Below, piece by piece: positions 1-10,080 of a stretch of 64,000 bases of DNA. The translations under genes and the position numbers were made by a program. This DNA is from an uncultured beta proteobacterium (GTDB taxonomy: Bacteria; Pseudomonadota; Gammaproteobacteria; Burkholderiales; Burkholderiaceae_B): contig CAIJKV010000189.1 of the NCBI GenBank assembly GCA_903821335.1, positions 2,612-66,611 of the forward strand. The letters run 5' to 3'. Every line of letters starts with the position of its first letter. Positions within the stretch are counted from its first letter, which is position 1. The notes below the pieces were generated by a model that worked only from the letters and a program-made list of their open reading frames with translations, did not search any database and was not told the origin of the DNA.

Positions 1-379
1 TATTGATCGGGCTTGCGGTATTGACGATCAGGTGCGACGTGTAGCCTTGAGATCCGTCGGCGTTCACCATCACGGCGAATATTTCACCATTTGAACGATC
101 GACCGCTTCCATTGCGGACTTGTTGCCGAACCAGCCGACTTGCACCTTGTTAAAACGCATGGCTTCGATGATGCCTGCGTAGTCTGAGGCAAAGAACGCT
201 TTGACGGTCAGGCCTGTCTGGCGTTGCATATCGTCGAGTAGCGGCTGCCAGTCCTGCTTGAGATTTTGCGACGCCTCGGTCGAAATGAAGCCAAAATTAA
301 TATCTTCAGCAAGTGCGATATTTGCACTGAAGGCCTGGGTCATTGCAATGACCACTCCGGCTGCGATTTTCTTGAGCAT
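1..379 (-). CDS. phnD: Phosphonate ABC transporter substrate-binding protein (5' part; continues beyond window start)
   Basis: Manual translation from ATG at 379: MLKKIAAGVVIAMTQAFSANIALAEDINFGFISTEASQNLKQDWQPLLDDM...FFASDYAGIIEAMRFNKVQVGWFGNKSAMEAVDRSNGEIFA. Signal peptide plus PhnD motifs; directly downstream of phnC. Confidence 0.92.
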   Translation of the reverse strand, partial: MLKKIAAGVVIAMTQAFSANIALAEDINFGFISTEASQNLKQDWQPLLDDMQRQTGLTVKAFFASDYAGIIEAMRFNKVQVGWFGNKSAMEAVDRSNGEIFAVMVNADGSQGYTSHLIVNTASPIN

Positions 380-410
380 GAATAAAGATCCAGTGATAAA
401 AAATTAAAGT

Positions 411-1271
411 TCAGGCTGCCTGTGCCAGGCGTGGGGGCGGTGCAATGTTGGCCGAGCCATGGCTTGCGGTTGTGGTGGCGCCAGCGATGTGTGGTGCCAG
501 GAGTTCGTCGACCTGAACGCCATAGAGCTTGCCCAGCAACTCAGGGGTGAGGCTTGAGGCCGGGCCGTCAAAAACAATCTTTCCCTGGTTCAGGGCAACA
601 ACCCGTTTGCAGTATTTGATTGCAACATCGACCTGATGCAGGGAGACGATAACGGTGCTGCCGTCTTCACGATTGATCTTGGCCAGAATGTCCATGACTT
701 TTCTGGAAGACTCAGGGTCGAGAGAGGCGATGGGTTCATCCGCCAGCACAATGCGCGCACCCTGCACAAGCGTGCGCGCGATCGCAGCACGTTGCTGTTG
801 CCCACCTGACAGCGTCGATGCACGCTGGGCATGACAGTCCGCGATGCCGACCCGGGCAAGCGCGTCCAGGGCCATCGAGCGTTCCTGAGCGTTAAACATG
901 CCAGGGATACTGCGCCACCACGGCATGCTGTGCAGTCTGCCGGCAAGCACGTTGATCATGACCGACAGGCGATCTACCAGGTTAAATTGTTGAAATACAA
1001 AACCAACGCGCGCGCGAATCTTGCGGATATTGCGATCAACCTTGCCGTTGCGCTGCACACAGTCACCATGGATCTCAATCATGGATCCCGCATTGACGTC
1101 TGCCGCCACCAGTCCCGCGATATGTCGCAACAACGTGGATTTTCCAGAGCCTGACGCACCAATCAACGCCACCATTTCGCCGTGCCGGACCGTGAGGTTG
1201 ATCTGGCTCAGCGCAGGCTTATTGGCGATGAAATGTTTATTCAGGTGTTCAATGCGAAGCGCCAGTTTCAT
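411..1271 (-). CDS. phnC: Phosphonate ABC transporter ATP-binding protein
   Basis: Walker [18 protein letters not shown] signature, [20 protein letters not shown]. Start moved to ATG 1271 (MKLALRI), which follows an AGGGAG SD. Confidence 0.95.
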
Positions 1272-1300
1272 ACCGAACTCCCTGAGTGTGTGTGTCGGAT

Positions 1301-1345
1301 AGTATGGACAGAGGTTGTTACCGCCTGTTGACAGCGATGTGACCG
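1301..1345 (-). promoter_or_regulatory. PHO box plus -10 element upstream of phnC
   Basis: Minus strand CGGTCAC-ATCG-CTGTCAA-CAGG-CGGTAAC (11-bp period), a 10-nt spacer, then CATACT (-10). Confidence 0.75.
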
Positions 1346-1366
1346 ATTTATTGCTCCGCAGTGGGT

Positions 1367-2524
1367 TCAGAGGACTTGCTGCCCCTGACGCCACACGGTG
1401 CGCACCACTGCATGCCGGTGATGTCCAACCAGTCGGGCCATATGCACACGCACCAGGTCAGCGCGCAAGCCCTGTGCAATCATCCCGCGGTCGACCATGC
1501 CGGTCGCTTGCGCAGGCTTGCTCGTCACGGTTGCCATGGCCTGCGGCAGGGTCAGAATGCCATCGTCCACCAGTCGCATGACAGCGGTCAGCAGGCTGCC
1601 TGGCACGTAGTCTGAAGAAAGTATGTCCAGCAGACCTTCCCTGGCAAGGTCTGATGCCGCGACGTTGCCCGAGTGTGACCCACCGCGAACGACATTGGGG
1701 CCGCCCATCACGGTCAGCAAACCGCGTGCATGGGCCGCGCGTGCGGCGGCGAGCGTCGTGGGGAACTCGGACGTGCTCGCACCTTCCGCATGTGCTTGCG
1801 ATACATGTTCGACAGTCGTGTCATCGTGGCTGGCCAGGTGGATGTTGTGTGTTCGGCAGTAGTCGACAAAATAGCTTCGGTGTGGGGCACTATATTTGGC
1901 CTGCAACGTGGCAGCATTGCGCACTTTGTCTTCGAACTTGTCGTGACTCCAGCCCTTTTTTCCGGTGAAGTACGTGCGGGCCTGCTCGATATTTTCCCAC
2001 TGGCGTTGTCCGGGCGTGTGGTCCATGACCGAAATCAGAGACAACCTTGGGTGCCCCTGAAACGGTTCGAATAACGCGATGGTGTTCGGGGCGGGCAGTT
2101 CACAGCGCACATGAAGGTGGTGGTCAGCCCGCAACAGGCCCCGGTCCGCACAGGTGTCGATAGCGGCGAGCACGCGTTCCCAGGATTGCCCGCGGACGCT
2201 TTCAACATCAGCTTCGCCGACACCGAGCGCATCAAGGACGGTGGTGATCCCGGCGGCCGCGATCTCTGCGTCGTGCGCGAGCAATGCGGGGACTTCTGCC
2301 CAACTGACCTTGGGGCGAGGCATCAGGTGCCGTTCGAAGTTGTCGGTATGCACCTCGACTAAACCCGGAATCAGGTAGTCACCTTCAAAGTCGATGGCGC
2401 CGGGCGACGATGTGGTGCCGCTGCTGATCGACGCGATCTTTCCATTTTCTACCTGAACCGTGCCGGATATGATCTCATCGCCCAGGACAATGTTTGCATT
2501 TTTAAGTAAATAGCTGGTTCTCAT
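1367..2524 (-). CDS. phnM: Alpha-D-ribose 1-methylphosphonate 5-triphosphate diphosphatase
   Basis: Amidohydrolase [25 protein letters not shown]-like, ASHDD, GGSHSGN, SSDYVP motifs. Confidence 0.96.
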
Positions 2525-3240
2525 GCGTTGCTCCTGAAGGTGCCGACCAAGACATGTCGCGTGGCGATGCTGGCACCTACCTGGGCGTCGTGAAAAATTC
2601 CAATGGCGGCGCTGCCTTGGGCAATCGCTTCGCGAATCAATTCGATCACCGTTTCGGTATTGGCCGGGTCAAGCGAGGCCGTGGGCTCGTCAAGTAGCAG
2701 CAGTGGTCGCGGTTTGATCATGTTCCGAGCAATGTTGATTCGCTGTTGTTCTCCGCCCGAAAACGTGGCGGGTGGCAGGTGCCACAGCCGTTGCGGAATA
2801 CGAAGGCGTGTGAGCCAGGCTGACGCCTGGTCGCGCGCCGCCTTCAACCCGGCCATATCGTTGCCGGCATCTTCAGCAAGCGGTTCCGCGACGATGTCCA
2901 GGGCGCAGATGCGCGGAATCACACGCAGGAACTGACTGACGTAGCTAATGGAGTGCCGTCTGAGCGCGACCAGTTCGCGTGGTGTAGCGCGTGTGATGTC
3001 CAGGGCGGGCTGATCGTCGTGCTGCCTGAACTGAATGGAACCTGCGGTGGCACGATAGTTGGCATAAATCAGTTTGAGCAAGGTGCTCTTGCCCATCCCG
3101 GACGGCCCATCGAGCACCACACATTCACCAGGGCGCACTTCCAGATCCACTTTGTCCAGGACATTGAGTTCGATGCCATGTTGATTGTGCAGGGTGAATT
3201 GCTTTGCGACCCCCCGCATCTGAAGCAAAGGAAAGGTCAT
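2521..3240 (-). CDS. phnL: C-P lyase system ABC-type ATPase PhnL
   Basis: GPSGMGKST, YVSQFLRVIPR, PATFSGGEQQRINIAR, LDEPTASLD. Confidence 0.96.
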   Translation of the reverse strand: MTFPLLQMRGVAKQFTLHNQHGIELNVLDKVDLEVRPGECVVLDGPSGMGKSTLLKLIYANYRATAGSIQFRQHDDQPALDITRATPRELVALRRHSISYVSQFLRVIPRICALDIVAEPLAEDAGNDMAGLKAARDQASAWLTRLRIPQRLWHLPPATFSGGEQQRINIARNMIKPRPLLLLDEPTASLDPANTETVIELIREAIAQGSAAIGIFHDAQVGASIATRHVLVGTFRSNA

Positions 3241-4022
3241 GGCTGCAACACTGAGGAAACGAGGAGTTGGGTATAGGCGTGTTGCGGGTCGTCCAGCACC
3301 TGGTCAGTGAGTCCTGATTCCACAATGCGACCACGTTGCATGACGATCATTCGATGTGCCAGCAGCCTGGCAACGGCCAGGTCGTGCGTGACGATGATGG
3401 CCGCAAGATGCATGGTGCGTGTCAGTTGACGCAGCAAGTCCAGCAGTTTGGCCTGGACCGACACGTCCAGTCCCGACGTGGGCTCGTCCATGAAGATCAG
3501 GCGTGGTTGCGTCACCAGATTGCGCGCGATTTGTAGTCGTTGTTTCATGCCACCGGAAAAGGTACGGGGCGTATCGTCGATGCGCCCCGGATCGATCTCG
3601 ACACGCTCGAGCCAATCCATCGCGGTTTCGCGCAAGCGCCCATAGTGCCGATGGCCGAGCGCCATCAGACGTTCCCCCACGTTGGCACCCGCAGACACAT
3701 CCATGCGTAGTCCATCCACAGCGTTTTGGTGCACAAAGCCCCAGTCTGTGCGCGCCAGCAGGCGCTGCTGGGCCTGACTCATGGAAAAGATGTCCTGCAG
3801 ACCCCTCTCACGCGTCGAGAATTGCACGCAGCCAGCGTCTGGCAGGCTGCGTGCCGCGATCGCATTGAGCAGGGTAGTTTTTCCTGAACCTGACTCGCCG
3901 ACGACGGCAAGGACTTCGCCTGGCCAGAGGTCAAAACTTGCGTCGGCCAGCGCCAGTCGCGTCCCGTAATGTTTGGTGATGCCCGACACCCGCAGGAGTG
4001 GTTCGCAATGTGTGGCGTTCAT
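3237..4022 (-). CDS. phnK: C-P lyase system ATPase PhnK
   Basis: GESGSGKTT, RTDWGFVHQ, SAGANVGERLM, FSGGMKQRLQIARNL, VLDDPQHAYTQLLVSSVL. Confidence 0.96.
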   Translation of the reverse strand: MNATHCEPLLRVSGITKHYGTRLALADASFDLWPGEVLAVVGESGSGKTTLLNAIAARSLPDAGCVQFSTRERGLQDIFSMSQAQQRLLARTDWGFVHQNAVDGLRMDVSAGANVGERLMALGHRHYGRLRETAMDWLERVEIDPGRIDDTPRTFSGGMKQRLQIARNLVTQPRLIFMDEPTSGLDVSVQAKLLDLLRQLTRTMHLAAIIVTHDLAVARLLAHRMIVMQRGRIVESGLTDQVLDDPQHAYTQLLVSSVLQP

Positions 4023-4996
4023 GTCGGCAGAACCTCCCGTTGAACGGCGTCTGATCGAACTGCATCCGATCGAAAGGCCTCGTTCTGAACAGCGCCCGGT
4101 CGTGCTGCCGTCACGACGGGTTGGCGGGACTGACAGTAGTCAGAGTCAGAGCAAACATGCATGCGTGTACCGGAGTCGTCGGTAATGACTTCATCCAGAA
4201 AACTGTCGGTGGCCCCGCATAGTTCGCAATGGGCATCCCAACGCTGCACCGCGAAGGGGTGGTCCTCGAACCCCAGGCTTTCTACCGACGTGTAGGGGGG
4301 CACAGCATAAATTCGCTTTTCGCGTCCCGCGCCAAAAAGTTGTAGCGCAGGGTTCATGTGCATTTTCGGATTGTCGAATTTTGGAATAGGGGAGGGCGAC
4401 ATGATGTATCTGCCATTGACCAGCACCGGGTAGTCATAGGTCGTTGCGATATGCCCATAGCGTGCGATATCCTCGTACAGTTTGACGTGCATCAGGCCGT
4501 ACTCCGCCAGGCCGTGGAGGGTACGGGTCTCGCGTTCGCGTGGCTCCAGTCTTTGCATCGGTTCCGGGACCGGAACCTGGTAGACCATCACCTGTCCTTC
4601 TTTCAGTGGTGTTTCCGGAATGCGGTGACGCGTTTGTATCAGCGTCGCCTCTTGCGTGCGGGTCGTCGTCGTGACTCGGGTGGTGCGTTCAAAAAAACGT
4701 CGGATATTGACTGCGTTGACGGTATCGTCAGAGCCCTGGTCGATGACCTTCAGAATCTCATCAGGACCAATCACCGAGGCCGTGATCTGGATCCCGCCGG
4801 TGCCCCAGCCGTAGGGCAAGGGCATCTCGCGTGAGCCAAAGGGAACCTGATATCCGGGGATCGCAACCGCCTTGAGCAGGGCGCGACGGATCATGCGTTT
4901 GGTCCGCTCATCCAGATAGCCAAAATTAAAGGCCGGCCGCGCGGTCGAGTCGTTGACCGCAGCGGGTGTTGTGGCGGGACATGTGTTGTCAGGCAT
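4019..4996 (-). CDS. phnJ: Radical-SAM C-P lyase PhnJ
   Basis: YNFGYLDE-like, REMPLPYGWGTGG, DQGSDDTVNA, SPSPIPKFD, and the CELCG...VCSDSDYC Fe-S motif. Start set at ATG 4996 (MPDNT). Confidence 0.96.
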   Translation of the reverse strand: MPDNTCPATTPAAVNDSTARPAFNFGYLDERTKRMIRRALLKAVAIPGYQVPFGSREMPLPYGWGTGGIQITASVIGPDEILKVIDQGSDDTVNAVNIRRFFERTTRVTTTTRTQEATLIQTRHRIPETPLKEGQVMVYQVPVPEPMQRLEPRERETRTLHGLAEYGLMHVKLYEDIARYGHIATTYDYPVLVNGRYIMSPSPIPKFDNPKMHMNPALQLFGAGREKRIYAVPPYTSVESLGFEDHPFAVQRWDAHCELCGATDSFLDEVITDDSGTRMHVCSDSDYCQSRQPVVTAARPGAVQNEAFRSDAVRSDAVQREVLPT

Positions 4997-6113
4997 CTCT
5001 GTTTTCTCCAGCACGCTTGGAGTCGTCGCACTTGGCTTGTGCACGCATTGTTCGCACCAGATCCAGTTCTGCCTGGAAGTCGACGTAATGAGGCAATTTG
5101 AGATGCTGGACAAAGCCAGAAGCCTCCAGGCTGTCGCTATGCGACAACACGAATTCCTGCATTTGTGCCGGGGATTCGATCGACTCACCCAATTCGTCGG
5201 CGCGCAACGCGCGATCAACCAGACTCATCGCCATGGCTTTGCGCTCGCTGTGTCCAAACGCCAGGCCATAGCCGCGCGTAAATGTTGGCGGCTCTGAGGC
5301 CGAGCCTGCGAACTGGTTCACCATTTCACATTCCGTCAGTTCGATGTCCCCGAGCGAGATCGCGAAGCCTAGTTCAGGCGGAACAAATTCGACGGCAACG
5401 GTCCCAAGCCGAATTTCACCGACGAAAGGATGGCTGTGCGAGTAGCCACGTTGAGTGGAATACGCCATGGCCAGCAGGAAGCCCTCGTCACCCCGCGCAA
5501 GATTCTGCAGCCGTGTCGCGCGATCTGCCGGGAATCTCAGCGGCTCACGGGTCAGATCCATAGGCGGCGGATCATTTTCCGGGACGGGGTGCGTTTCAAT
5601 CAACCCCTCGTGATTGAGTAGATCCACCACCCGTGGTGGCGGCTGTGTCGCAGCGCTTGCGGCGGTGCAGACTGACGCCGCCGCTGCTGTCAGGTCGCTT
5701 TGCGCATTGGCCAGCAACGTGAAATCCAGTAGCCGTTGCGTGTAGTCATAGGTTGGCCCAAGAACCTGGCCGCCCGGGATATCTTTGAACGTTGCGGAAA
5801 TGCGGCGATCGAGCTGCATGCGCGAAGTCTCGAGTGGACAAGTTGAACCGATGCGGGGCAACGTGGCACGGTAGGCGCGCAAGAGGAAAATGGCTTCAAT
5901 CAAGTCACCGCTGGCTTGTTTGATTGCCAGTGCGGCCAGTTCGCGGTCGTAGACGGAGCCTTCCGTCATCACACGATCAACGGCCAGCTTGAGTTGACTC
6001 TGGATTTGTCTCGTCGTGAGTTCAGCCCAAGCGGTGTCGCCGCGCCGCTGGACGGCCAGCAGCGCGTAACTGTTCAGAATGGCTTGTTCGCCTCCCTTGA
6101 CTGCGACATACAT
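4989..6113 (-). CDS. phnI: C-P lyase complex subunit PhnI
   Basis: MYVAVKGGEQAI N-terminus, RRISATFKDIPGGQVLGPTYDY, GFVQHLKLPHYVDFQAEL. Confidence 0.96.
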   Translation of the reverse strand: MYVAVKGGEQAILNSYALLAVQRRGDTAWAELTTRQIQSQLKLAVDRVMTEGSVYDRELAALAIKQASGDLIEAIFLLRAYRATLPRIGSTCPLETSRMQLDRRISATFKDIPGGQVLGPTYDYTQRLLDFTLLANAQSDLTAAAASVCTAASAATQPPPRVVDLLNHEGLIETHPVPENDPPPMDLTREPLRFPADRATRLQNLARGDEGFLLAMAYSTQRGYSHSHPFVGEIRLGTVAVEFVPPELGFAISLGDIELTECEMVNQFAGSASEPPTFTRGYGLAFGHSERKAMAMSLVDRALRADELGESIESPAQMQEFVLSHSDSLEASGFVQHLKLPHYVDFQAELDLVRTMRAQAKCDDSKRAGENRDA

Positions 6114-6115
6114 GT

Positions 6116-6766
6116 TCAGCGCTCCTGCGAAAAGTGAATATGTGTTGAGCGGGGCAGACCCGCGATCACGGTGGGGGCAGTGAACAGCACATCCACCCCA
6201 CGCGGAAAGCTCACCTGGTTGTCTGCCCACATCGACGCGAAGCACTCAAGAATCTCAAGGTGCAGCCCCGGAAAATTCAGCGTGCTGGTACCCAGGATCC
6301 CGGGTCCTCGCAGCGTCAGGCAACCCGGCGCGACATGTCCAACGGCTGGGTTGTCCAGCTCTGGAACGTCGATCAGTACGGTCGTTGATTGGTCCGGATA
6401 ATCGTCGCTGCCAGTCGCGAACGACGCGAGCGAAGGCAAGTCAGCCATATCGCTGACCCACGCAAACTGTGCCTGTTTCGGGTCTTGTGTCAGCGCGCAA
6501 CCCGTATGAAACATCAGCCACGTCGCAGCCTGGCTATTGACCAGCTTTGGCGACAGCCAGAGGCGACAATCCTGATCAAGCAGAGCGAGCAACAGCGCCG
6601 AAGAGGTCGGGTGAAGTGCGTGCGGGATGTCGGCGTCTGGCGCGAGTTCGACCAGGCGCCCGGGATAAGACAGGGCACGCAGGGCGGCCCTGAAGGTGGC
6701 CTGGCTACCAAACGCCTCGTGTGCGAAGCCGGCACCGATTGTGGATAGATCGTGTGGTGTCATCAT
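6116..6766 (-). CDS. phnH: C-P lyase complex subunit PhnH
   Basis: SQATFRAALRALSYPG, LALLDQD, WLMFHTG, YPDQSTTVLI, LRGPGI, FPRGVD, GLPRST. Confidence 0.94.
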   Translation of the reverse strand: MMTPHDLSTIGAGFAHEAFGSQATFRAALRALSYPGRLVELAPDADIPHALHPTSSALLLALLDQDCRLWLSPKLVNSQAATWLMFHTGCALTQDPKQAQFAWVSDMADLPSLASFATGSDDYPDQSTTVLIDVPELDNPAVGHVAPGCLTLRGPGILGTSTLNFPGLHLEILECFASMWADNQVSFPRGVDVLFTAPTVIAGLPRSTHIHFSQER

Positions 6767-7266
6767 TCCTGATCCCCGTATTCGCCGAGATCCGACTCAC
6801 GCGCAACGGTAAAAAACTCAACCTTTGAACTGTCGGCGCGGTCCTGGCGTTGTGTGCGCAGTTCGCTCAGGTGTATGCGAATGGATACGAGCAACGTGGT
6901 GTCAAGTGCGGCGTGCTGATCCGGTGACTGAAGCAGTGCATCAGCCGTGGCCGCGAGTTGAGCCTGCCGGTGTGACCGACCCAGCACATACGCGATGCCG
7001 ACGTGGGGAGTGCTCGAGGGTGGGTTCAGCCGCAGCGCACAGCGTGTCACGGTGACCTCACCGAGATTGAACCGCGCACCCGTGCCGCCCGCACGACCTT
7101 GAATCATCATCAGGCCTGTCTCAGGCGCACGTAGCCATTTCGGTGCGTGCATGCTGTGCGCGCTTAACGCAGGTTCAAGCAAGCTGAGGGGAGCTCTTGC
7201 GAGTAGTGCCATCCAATCTGCACGGGCAGCAGATTGTGTGATTAGAGTGTCAGAGAATTGCAACAT
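6763..7266 (-). CDS. phnG: C-P lyase complex subunit PhnG
   Basis: WMALLA, RAPETGLMMIQGRAGGTGARFNLGEVTVTRC, ADALLQ, VEFFTVAR. Confidence 0.95.
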   Translation of the reverse strand: MLQFSDTLITQSAARADWMALLARAPLSLLEPALSAHSMHAPKWLRAPETGLMMIQGRAGGTGARFNLGEVTVTRCALRLNPPSSTPHVGIAYVLGRSHRQAQLAATADALLQSPDQHAALDTTLLVSIRIHLSELRTQRQDRADSSKVEFFTVARESDLGEYGDQE

Positions 7267-7312: not shown

Positions 7313-7346
7313 AGCATAGAGATGCCGCGTGTATCTTTGATGACAG
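7313..7346 (-). promoter_or_regulatory. PHO box plus -10 element of the phnG operon
   Basis: Minus strand CTGTCAT-CAAA-GATACAC, a 10-nt spacer, then TATGCT (-10). The first 11 nt are identical to the plcP box. Confidence 0.7.
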
Positions 7347-7349
7347 TCG

Positions 7350-7367
7350 TTGTCACAGGAATGAAAC
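7350..7367 (+). promoter_or_regulatory. Possible PHO box facing the DUF1045 gene
   Basis: TTGTCAC-AGGA-ATGAAAC; no clear -10 at the expected spacing. Confidence 0.3.
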
Positions 7368-7373
7368 AAAAAA

Positions 7374-8087
7374 ATGCATGAGACACCACTGACCAATGCA
7401 TATCGGTATGCGATTTACTTTGCCTCACGCCCGGACTCGGCCGATTGGCAAGCAGGCAGCAGGTGGCTTGGCAGATGCGCCGCCAGCGCAACAGTGGTGT
7501 CGCAACCGACTGTCGAAGGTGTGGCGCCGGAGGATTTCAACCGGCTGACCGCAGCACCCAGGCGCTATGGCTGGCACGCCACGCTCAAGGCACCTTTCGC
7601 GTTGCGGCACGGCATTGGGCTTGAGACGCTGCGCCAGGCGCTGAAACAACTGTCTGGGCAACTCAGTGCCTTTCAGATGCCAACCCTGTGTGCCAGAAAG
7701 CTCGACGATTTTCTTGCGCTCGCCCCTGTCACCGCAAGCCCGCAAATAGACAGGGTGGCCAGACAATGTGTGACCACCCTGCACGCATTCGCAGCACCAC
7801 TCTCAGCAGAAGCACTTGCGCGTCGACGCGCTGGCGGCCTGACACCAGAGGAAGATGCCTTACTCGTGCGCTGGGGGTATCCCTTTGTGCTGGAACGCTT
7901 TCAGTTTCACCTGTCGTTGACAGGATCATTGAAGGGTGTGTCGCCAGAGCGGATCGATGCAATACAAACCGCCGCAGTGCAGACATTTCAAACCATACCG
8001 CCGTGCCAGTTTGATTCCATCGCCCTATTCGCTGAACCCCGGCCCGGTGCAGATTTTGTGCTGCTTGAACACTTTGCTTTCAGGTAG
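7374..8087 (+). CDS. DUF1045 family phosphonate-metabolism protein (2H phosphoesterase fold)
   Basis: RYAIYFA, PRRYGWHATLKAPF, WGYPFV..FQFHLSLTG; two H-x-T/S motifs; divergent from phnG. Confidence 0.88.
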   Translation: MHETPLTNAYRYAIYFASRPDSADWQAGSRWLGRCAASATVVSQPTVEGVAPEDFNRLTAAPRRYGWHATLKAPFALRHGIGLETLRQALKQLSGQLSAFQMPTLCARKLDDFLALAPVTASPQIDRVARQCVTTLHAFAAPLSAEALARRRAGGLTPEEDALLVRWGYPFVLERFQFHLSLTGSLKGVSPERIDAIQTAAVQTFQTIPPCQFDSIALFAEPRPGADFVLLEHFAFR

Positions 8088-8146: not shown

Positions 8147-8202
8147 CTGTCATCAAATCATCACCAGACCGTCACAACGGTGTCAATTCGCAGGTGCATT
8201 GT
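8147..8202 (+). promoter_or_regulatory. Four-repeat PHO box plus -10 upstream of plcP-agt
   Basis: CTGTCAT-CAAA-TCATCAC-CAGA-CCGTCAC-AACG-GTGTCAA (8147-8186), a 10-nt spacer, then CATTGT (8197-8202). Confidence 0.8.
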
Positions 8203-8210
8203 GACTAGTC

Positions 8211-9029
8211 ATGAGACCCACCGAGCCGTTTACGTCCGACCCCGACCCCGTCCCCGTCCACCACCGTGCCATATGGATATCAGACATTCACCTTGGCACG
8301 GCAGGTTGCAAAGCGGAATACCTGCTGGATTTCTTGAAGTGGCACGAATGCGACCACCTGTATCTGGTGGGCGACATTATCGACGGCTGGCAGTTGAGAA
8401 AAAACTGGTACTGGAAACAGAGTCACAACGATGTCGTGCAAAAGATTTTGCGCAAAGCCCGCAAAGGAACGCGCGTGGTCTACATCGCAGGGAATCACGA
8501 CGAAGTCATTCGTCAGTTCATTGGCCTGGCCTTTGGTGATATTGAGATCGCAGACGAGACGACACACCAGTTGCTGGATGGCCGAATTCTGTGGATCACG
8601 CACGGTGATCTCTTTGATGGACTGATCCAGCACGCGAAATGGCTTGCCTATCTGGGTGATGGCCTCTACACGGTGATCCTCAAGTTAAACAACACCTTCA
8701 ATCACATTCGTCACCGACTGGGCCTGTCGTACTGGTCGTTGTCGCAATACCTGAAGCACAAGGTCAAGAACGCAGTGTCGTTCATTACCGAATTTGAAGA
8801 AGTGCTGACGGCCGAGGCCAGGCGTCGGGGCTATGACGGCGTGCTGTGCGGCCACATTCATCAGGCCGAGATCCGTGACGTCAACGGCATCCTGTATTGC
8901 AATGACGGCGACTGGGTCGAGAGCCTGTCTGCCATCGTCGAGACCACAACCGGAGAGCTAAAGGTTGTCTATTGGCATCAACGTGCCAGCCCATCCGTTA
9001 CGGAGCCCTCCCATGCCACAACAGTCTGA
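8211..9029 (+). CDS. plcP: PlcP-type Mn-dependent phospholipase C (LpxH2-like metallophosphoesterase)
   Basis: ISDIHLG, LVGDIIDGW, NDVVQKILRKARKG, GNHD, HGD, CGHIH, NDGDWVES; paired with a GT4 gene and PHO boxes. Confidence 0.82.
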   Translation: MRPTEPFTSDPDPVPVHHRAIWISDIHLGTAGCKAEYLLDFLKWHECDHLYLVGDIIDGWQLRKNWYWKQSHNDVVQKILRKARKGTRVVYIAGNHDEVIRQFIGLAFGDIEIADETTHQLLDGRILWITHGDLFDGLIQHAKWLAYLGDGLYTVILKLNNTFNHIRHRLGLSYWSLSQYLKHKVKNAVSFITEFEEVLTAEARRRGYDGVLCGHIHQAEIRDVNGILYCNDGDWVESLSAIVETTTGELKVVYWHQRASPSVTEPSHATTV

Positions 9030-10080
9030 ACTGCCACAATCTTCCGCGCGCAAGCTCTCCGGAATCAGGAGCCTGCTGATTGTCACCGATGCCGCGGCCC
9101 CCCAAGTCAACGGGGTCGTGAGAACCATCGGCAACACCAAACATCATTTTGAGCAGATGGGCGTGAAAGTTGATTTGCTGACGCCTGAACGCTTCAGGAC
9201 AATTGCCTGCCCCAGTTATCCTGAAATCCGCCTGTCCCTGACGACCTCGAAAAGCGTTGAGCGCGTGATTGAATCGTTTAATCCCGATGCGTTGCATGTG
9301 TCGACCGAGGGACCGCTGGGCTGGGCCACGCGCAAGATCGCGCGCAAGCGCGGGTGGAACTTCACCACGGCTTATCACACGCGTTTTCCTGAATATGTGA
9401 ATGCACGCACGGGCATTCCAACCCCCTGGATCTACAACATTTTCCGCAGATTCCATTCGGCCTCCTCGGGCGTGTTGGCACCGACCAGGACGATCAAGGA
9501 CAATCTGCTGCTCAATGGCTTTGATCGAGTTGTTGAGTGGACGCACGGTGTGGATCACGAAATTTTTTATCCACGCGTTCAACAGCAACCGGCTGACTTG
9601 CATAACCCGATTTTCCTGTACGTCGGTCGACTGGCGATCGAAAAGAATGTCGAGGCGTTTTTAAAACTCGATCTTCCCGGGCAAAAATGGGTCGCTGGCG
9701 AGGGGCCGTTGCAGGAAGATTTGAAGCGGAAGTATCCCGAGGCTCGCTACATCGGTGTCCTGTCCCAAGGCGATCTGGCGACGTTGTACAGCCAGGCCGA
9801 TGTATTTGTGTTCCCCAGCCTGACTGATACCTTCGGGCTGGTCATGCTCGAAGCGATGGCCTGCGGCCTGCCCGTCGCCGCCTTTCCCGTGGCTGGCCCG
9901 ATTGACGTGATTGGTGACAGCCCTGCGGGCGCGCTTGACCACGATCTGCAAAAAGCTTGCTTGCAAGCGCTGAGTATCAAGCGGGAAACCGCAATCGCCC
10001 ATGCGAAAACCTATTCTTGGGAAACTGCGACGCGCCAGATGCAGGACGCGCTGGTATGGATGCGCGGTGAGAAGCGCTAA
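9013..10080 (+). CDS. agt: GT4 glycosyltransferase, Agt-like glycolipid (MGDG/GADG) synthase
   Basis: LIVTDAAAPQVNGVVRT, YPEIRLS, STEGPLG, TTAYHTRFPEY, VGRLAIEKN, FVFPSLTDTFGLVMLEAMACGLPVAA. GGAG SD at 9002; overlaps plcP by 17 nt. Confidence 0.78.
   Translation: MPQQSELPQSSARKLSGIRSLLIVTDAAAPQVNGVVRTIGNTKHHFEQMGVKVDLLTPERFRTIACPSYPEIRLSLTTSKSVERVIESFNPDALHVSTEGPLGWATRKIARKRGWNFTTAYHTRFPEYVNARTGIPTPWIYNIFRRFHSASSGVLAPTRTIKDNLLLNGFDRVVEWTHGVDHEIFYPRVQQQPADLHNPIFLYVGRLAIEKNVEAFLKLDLPGQKWVAGEGPLQEDLKRKYPEARYIGVLSQGDLATLYSQADVFVFPSLTDTFGLVMLEAMACGLPVAAFPVAGPIDVIGDSPAGALDHDLQKACLQALSIKRETAIAHAKTYSWETATRQMQDALVWMRGEKR

Follow-up and report, generated by a model that had tools for sequence, protein, structure and literature searches.

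The closest described relatives of the genes examined here belong to Burkholderia. In Burkholderia cenocepacia K56-2, plcP, agt and dagK form an operon (BCAL2364-2366) that is induced by phosphate depletion; deletion of plcP or agt leads to the loss of monoglucosyldiacylglycerol (MGDG), glucuronosyldiacylglycerol (GADG) and keto-GADG (KGADG), and agt by itself in Escherichia coli yields MGDG and GADG (PMC13691135; bioRxiv 2023, JBC 2026). The operon is found in all pathogenic Burkholderia, the PlcPs of the B. cepacia complex (Bcc) are more than 84% identical to BCAL2364 (PMC13691135), and in B. glumae and B. plantarii the pathway behaves as in B. cenocepacia (PMC13700237, 2026). In Pseudomonas aeruginosa, PlcP is PA3219, Agt1 (MGDG) is PA3218 and Agt2 (GADG) is the unlinked PA0842 (PMC8528852). 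Here we describe a plcP-agt pair found at positions 8211-10080 of a 64,000-nucleotide (nt) stretch of DNA from an uncultured betaproteobacterium of the Burkholderiales (GenBank assembly GCA_903821335.1, contig CAIJKV010000189.1, positions 2,612 to 66,611 of the forward strand), referred to below as the window. The pair very probably constitutes a PhoB-activated operon that replaces phospholipids with glycolipids, judging from its sequence and that of its relatives.

What is observed here is the structure of the two genes, the placement of their products in protein families, their orthology to the pair characterised in Burkholderia, and a conserved promoter geometry. An initial annotation of the window had proposed a plcP-agt lipid-remodelling module, and this interpretation is supported by the LpxH family scores, the phylogeny, the identity to Bcc proteins, the Agt motifs and the Pho-box promoter. 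Its comment that little is known of the module in betaproteobacteria has been overtaken by the studies of B. cenocepacia K56-2 (PMC13691135) and of B. glumae and B. plantarii (PMC13700237).

The plcP-agt pair and its Burkholderia counterparts

The features of the pair are as follows.

8211-9029, plus strand: plcP, an open reading frame (ORF) of 272 amino acids (aa) encoding an LpxH-like metallophosphoesterase, predicted to be a Mn-dependent phospholipase C that produces diacylglycerol (DAG) from phosphatidylethanolamine (PE), phosphatidylglycerol (PG) or phosphatidic acid (PA)
9002-9005, plus strand: GGAG, the Shine-Dalgarno sequence of agt by direct reading of the sequence, lying inside the plcP 3' end, 7 nt 5' of the ATG at 9013
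9013-10080, plus strand: agt, encoding a 355-aa GT4 glycosyltransferase (GT-B fold), predicted from its ORF, domains, motifs, identity to Bcc proteins and clade to be a DAG glycosyl- or glucuronosyltransferase

The ATG at 8211 is the sole usable start codon of plcP: a TGA at 8202-8204 closes the frame, and 5' of the DxH motif there is no alternative start codon. In the list of ORFs agt begins with a TTG at 8965, but the ATG at 9013 is the likelier start because it is preceded by the GGAG at 9002-9005. The stop codon of plcP occupies 9027-9029, which gives an overlap of 17 nt from this ATG, or 65 nt with the TTG as start, and the 17-nt overlap would couple translation of agt to that of plcP.

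A domain search of the window PlcP returned PF00149 and PF12850, both above their cut-offs. The motifs DIHLG (residue 25), GDIID (54), NDVVQKILRKARKG (73), GNHD (94), HGD (131), GHIH (214) and NDGDWVES (231) were located in the 272-aa translation, including every one of the PlcP-type motifs quoted in the initial annotation. The metallophosphoesterase motif set (DxH, GD, GNH[DE], H, GHxH) is complete in the window protein and invariant across 28 homologs. No signal peptide or membrane span was found in the window PlcP sequence, and the enzyme is therefore predicted to act at the cytoplasmic face of the membrane.

The product of agt includes both GT4 halves, PF13439 and PF00534, each above its cut-off, and a glycine-rich N-terminal stretch, PQVNGVVRT, at residues 30-38. 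The earlier description of an overlapping GT4 with an Agt-type N-terminus thus holds. The UDP-sugar motifs are GRLAIEKN at residue 205 and FPSLTDTFG at 267. In GTcp of SAR11 the corresponding motifs are GRVAxEKN and FPSxTDTFG, the latter with Asp where GT4 enzymes usually have Glu (PMC8231724). Candidate counterparts of GTcp residues His104, Arg163 and Trp320 are the His in LHVSTEG (94), the Arg in TR (158) and the Trp in SWE (335).

Named sequences were reached via a plcP-agt-dagK locus in a 6.8-Mb genome of the order, the PlcP of which was used as the query against the genomes of named species. The matches included B. arboris, B. dolosa and B. latens, all members of the cepacia complex; B. 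cenocepacia was absent among the 80 loci returned and these three species served as its proxies. When compared by tblastn, PlcP was 68-70% and Agt 57-59% identical to the proteins of the three species over nearly the full length, and the gene order in all three is plcP-agt-dagK. Characterised PlcPs of different classes share only 46-51% identity with one another. The window PlcP and the Bcc PlcPs form one clade in a maximum likelihood (ML) tree. In the Agt tree, the window Agt groups with the Bcc Agt and apart from a second type of GT4 that flanks plcP in the genus.

The GT4 could conceivably act, beside a PlcP that functions as proposed, on an acceptor other than DAG, such as PG (in the manner of a glucosaminyl-PG, GlcN-PG, synthase) or a precursor of an envelope polysaccharide. 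GT4 is a very broad family and the best NCBIfam match of the window GT4 is indeed the GlcN-PG (N-acetylglucosaminyl-PG) synthase, yet this match reaches 78 bits where the cut-off is 480. The full-length identity to Bcc Agt and membership of the same clade, the production of MGDG and GADG by the B. cenocepacia Agt in E. coli, and the predicted translational coupling to an enzyme predicted to generate DAG all point to DAG as the acceptor, and we consider a different one unlikely.

The Pho-box promoter

The initial annotation had also cited a PHO array, and an array of four heptamers with a geometry that is kept in relatives does precede plcP, together with a candidate -10 element.

8147-8186, plus strand: Pho-box array of four 7-nt units in 11-nt phase, CTGTCAT caaa TCATCAC caga CCGTCAC aacg GTGTCAA
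8197-8202, plus strand: candidate -10 element CATTGT, separated by 10 nt from the last heptamer and by 8 nt from the ATG, its position kept in relatives

The array matches CTGTCAT at 20 of 28 positions and ends 24 nt 5' of the plcP ATG. It is a putative PhoB binding site that would take the place of a -35 element. A four-unit array was found at -64 or -63 from the ATG in 10 relatives, nine in the same genus and one in another family of the order. In all 11 sequences, exactly 10 nt separate the array from a hexamer whose second letter is A and whose sixth is T, and the ATG comes 7-8 nt after this hexamer. The spacer letters between these conserved elements differ freely among the relatives. A gap of 10 nt between the box and the -10 element is the classical geometry of a PhoB promoter.

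A search with the strict E. coli Pho-box pattern, allowing up to three mismatches, found nothing near plcP and no enrichment in the window, and the case for a Pho box therefore draws on the phasing of the four units and on their conservation. A matrix made only from the sites of the relatives, together with a four-unit score, was adopted after the strict pattern had missed the array. Taken from the relatives by themselves, the heptamer consensus reads CTGTCAT, which is the canonical half-site. When this matrix was run on the whole of the source genome, the two-unit score placed the window site 23rd, behind the pstS promoter (7th) and ahead of the phoB promoter (about 41st), and the four-unit score of the window array was second among 7.9 million positions. 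PhoB (366 bits) and PstS (400 bits) are both encoded in the genome. The highest four-unit score, 29.5 bits, belongs to a TTGTCAA/TCGTCAA repeat, also in 11-nt phase, on another contig (G000:C102:8148-8187, minus strand; G000 is the source genome), with an ORF of 199 aa about 160 nt 3' of it.

A generic sigma-70 scan did not call CATTGT as a -10 element, as expected for a promoter that lacks a -35 element, and the sigma-70 and terminator scan was uninformative for the plcP promoter. Inspection of the sequence revealed no Shine-Dalgarno sequence at a usable distance before plcP. Because of this, and because the -10 element is only 8 nt from the ATG, the plcP mRNA is probably leaderless or nearly so.

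An operon outside PhoB control might use the array for another regulator, or might be transcribed by read-through from the promoter of a DUF1045 gene and serve general envelope homeostasis. The DUF1045 gene is co-oriented and lies 123 nt upstream of plcP, the Pho-box promoter being contained in this spacer. Each two-unit box agrees with the E. coli consensus at just 10 of 14 positions, and the shared ancestry of the relatives' sites makes their conservation alone a weak proof. Set against this are the blind consensus of the relatives, which is exactly CTGTCAT, the 11-nt phase and the canonical spacing of 10 nt before the -10 element, as well as the recovery of the pstS and phoB promoters by the same matrix. 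Orthologues are also induced by phosphate starvation in Burkholderia and Pseudomonas (PMC13691135, PMC13700237, PMC8528852). Control by something other than PhoB thus appears very unlikely.

PlcP, LpxH and the proposed pathway

Nearly all named public homologs of the window PlcP are annotated as UDP-2,3-diacylglucosamine pyrophosphatase, diphosphatase or hydrolase (LpxH), which is the label that the initial annotation had expected from pipelines. On the curated LpxH equivalogs of NCBIfam the window protein scores 38.5 bits (NF003743, cut-off 134) and 31.9 bits (TIGR01854, cut-off 190.35). A true LpxH of the same genome, scoring 246 bits, is found on another contig (C386). Five other Burkholderiales carriers of a PlcP-like gene were checked and a true LpxH was present in four (281-325 bits), the PlcP-like gene scoring 38-53 bits. 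One complete 3.7-Mb Burkholderiales genome (G036; loci L031 and L032) contains two PlcP-like paralogs with about 53% identity to the window protein, and no protein in it scores above the LpxH cut-off.

In the ML tree, which was built from 35 PlcP-like and five LpxH sequences, the two groups are separated with 100/100 support by a branch of about five changes per site. The initial annotation had named a phylogeny against LpxH as a check; with the Bcc PlcPs included, the window protein falls on the PlcP side of this split and does not cluster with true LpxH. An AlphaFold2 model of the window PlcP (mean pLDDT 77) has LpxH structures as its top matches in the Protein Data Bank (PDB), with 19-22% identity and TM-scores of 0.52-0.58. 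For the insert between HGD and GHIH the model predicts helices, with low confidence. The window PlcP resembles LpxH in fold, not in family, and identification of the esterase as LpxH was rejected because of the sub-threshold scores, the separate true LpxH in the genome and the 100/100 split.

That the gene encodes a second LpxH ('LpxH2') hydrolysing UDP-2,3-diacylglucosamine for lipid A, as the public name and the closest solved fold and curated family would have it, is extremely improbable for a protein with scores that do not exceed about a quarter of the LpxH cut-offs and 19-22% identity to LpxH structures, in a separate clade, in a genome with a bona fide LpxH elsewhere, encoded behind a Pho box and coupled to a predicted DAG glycosyltransferase, and with a Burkholderia orthologue that has a lipid-remodelling phenotype (PMC13691135).

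For the preferred reading, a phosphate-responsive plcP-agt operon, we infer the following sequence of events. When phosphate is short, phosphorylated PhoB would bind at 8147-8186 and recruit RNA polymerase to the -10 element at 8197-8202, and the transcript would start at the plcP ATG or within a few nucleotides of it. PlcP would be a cytoplasmic, membrane-peripheral enzyme of the LpxH fold with a complete dinuclear metal site. It is predicted to cut the phosphodiester of PE, PG or PA, leaving DAG in the membrane and freeing the phospho-head group, from which phosphate could be recovered. Translation of agt would begin at the start codon that overlaps the plcP stop, and Agt, with a UDP-sugar as donor, would attach glucose and/or glucuronic acid to DAG, forming MGDG and/or GADG, both free of phosphorus. 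A nucleotide-sugar dehydrogenase encoded in the genome could supply UDP-glucuronate.

Several points weigh against this reading, in addition to the GlcN-PG synthase match of the GT4 and the 10 of 14 score of each two-heptamer box already described. The evidence for this locus comes from sequence analysis and a structure model, and the link to a characterised protein passes through Bcc representatives acting as proxies for K56-2. The relatives' Pho sites are homologous and hence do not constitute independent evidence, and the lid region of the AlphaFold2 model is of low confidence. Unlike in Burkholderia, there is no dagK 3' of agt, where a convergent gene for a short-chain dehydrogenase/reductase (SDR) is found instead. 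Membership of dagK in the operon was rejected for this locus on account of this SDR gene and because the DAGK_prokar genes of the genome are on other contigs (C84, C62 and C58).

Distribution, surroundings and comparison with described systems

A homolog was found in 149 of the 301 Burkholderiales species sampled (E-value of 1e-30 or better) and in 16 of 18 congeners in the first draw, and the plcP-agt pair recurs in many Burkholderiales. The closest public proteins come from metagenome-assembled genomes (MAGs) from lakes and other environments, labelled Burkholderiaceae, Betaproteobacteria or Orrella sp. Five environmental MAG loci (L083, L090, L095, L096 and L106) come from entries titled 'Bordetella parapertussis' or 'Klebsiella pneumoniae', although their PlcPs are 69-78% identical to those of Burkholderiales, and one of them has the phn-DUF1045-plcP context seen in the window. 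These labels look wrong.

Homologs thus occur in about half of the Burkholderiales species sampled. The module would therefore be a common and predictable component of the way freshwater and soil betaproteobacteria respond to phosphate starvation, and as a marker plcP could indicate phosphorus stress in metatranscriptomes. The main value of the locus is in annotation: the gene is routinely mislabelled as LpxH, and the pair should read plcP-agt. The mechanism and its occurrence in betaproteobacteria have already been published and the locus moves no open question. Only the probable leaderless promoter, a second Agt with a Pho box and the change of glycosyltransferase type within the genus are mildly new.

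This second Agt is encoded by a monocistronic gene for a 351-aa protein elsewhere in the same genome (G000:C181:27189-28244, equivalent to L136:5190-6245, minus strand). It is 51% identical to the window Agt and 56% identical to the B. arboris Agt, and contains the motif FPSHTDTFG. A Pho box, GCGTCAC agtc TTGTCAT (approximately L136:6331-6348), lies 85 nt 5' of the gene and is among the ten best two-unit scores in the genome. The arrangement recalls Agt1 and Agt2 of P. aeruginosa.

An Agt of the window type adjoins plcP in four of 41 sampled genomes of the genus. Most congeners have another GT4 of about 415 aa, 35-38% identical, which is often directly upstream of plcP (as in L021, L022 and L023, from genomes G010, G007 and G011, respectively). 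In one genome, G013, DUF1045 and plcP are found without an adjacent GT4, and a GT4 of the other type is about 16 kb away. It is possible, if doubtful, that this freshwater genus combines a leaderless plcP mRNA, made from a four-heptamer PhoB promoter of fixed geometry, with sister species that under phosphate stress make different surrogate lipids through different glycosyltransferases. If so, the same PlcP would be paired with a Burkholderia-type Agt, duplicated here and with a Pho box for each copy, or with the GT4 of about 415 aa.

Upstream of plcP the window contains the following.

7374-8087, plus strand: gene for a putative phosphonate-metabolism protein (DUF1045/TIGR03223, by family matches), co-oriented with plcP
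1-7266, minus strand: divergent carbon-phosphorus (C-P) lyase operon, with phnG, phnH, phnI, phnJ, two genes for phnK/L-like ATPases, a phnM-like amidohydrolase gene and a gene for a phnC-like ATP-binding cassette (ABC) ATPase

The DUF1045 protein scores 231.5 bits on TIGR03223, slightly below the cut-off of 248.95. At the edge of the window, the C-P lyase operon includes the start of a gene for a phosphonate-binding protein, and among the annotated genes of the window no phnP-like gene was noticed. The C-P lyase operon is another function of the Pho regulon, and its position beside plcP counts in favour of the operon reading. The DUF1045-plcP junction was also found in two other members of the lineage (L020, from G013, and L083) and is absent from the closest relative. 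Beyond agt, the convergent SDR gene is followed by a gene for a protein with a metallo-beta-lactamase fold and a branched-chain amino-acid ABC system.

The spacer between phnG and DUF1045 contains weaker Pho-like matches (9-13 bits) on the minus strand. At 7339-7357, CTGTGAC aacga CTGTCAT has units 12 nt apart instead of 11, and CTGTCAT caaa GATACAC comes after this first pair. These sites may have a role at the divergent phn promoter.

Of the described systems, LpxH (PDB 6pib, 5b49, 5k8k) shares with the window PlcP its fold, the metal-binding motifs and the insert between HGD and GHxH. The window protein differs in its low identity, in scores below the curated thresholds, in its clade and in coexisting with the LpxH of its own genome. 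The systems of Sinorhizobium meliloti (SMc00171, the first PlcP), Phaeobacter MED193 and SAR11 HTCC7211 likewise consist of an LpxH-like esterase and a GT4 with GRVAxEKN and FPSxTDTFG motifs, under Pho-box control (PMC4796936, PMC8231724). They are alphaproteobacterial and are likened here by description; the window PlcP is expected to be about 46-51% identical to their PlcPs, because characterised PlcPs share no more than this.

P. aeruginosa resembles the source genome in having a plcP-agt operon and an unlinked second Agt, each with a Pho box; the likeness is one of arrangement. The two paralogs described here are 51% identical and arose inside the Burkholderia-type Agt clade, so that a division of sugars between them of the kind found in P. 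aeruginosa is only a guess.

The Burkholderia K56-2 system is the closest. Both organisms belong to the Betaproteobacteria and the Burkholderiales, plcP precedes agt in each, and both proteins fall in shared clades. The Bcc loci have an upstream Pho-box-like sequence, CTGTCAC ggca CAGTCAC. Apart from dagK, the window locus differs in the 17-nt overlap of plcP and agt, in its C-P lyase and DUF1045 neighbours and in the second Agt paralog, and its source is an uncultured and probably freshwater lineage of Burkholderiales instead of a pathogen. Overall, the differences from the Burkholderia operon are small.

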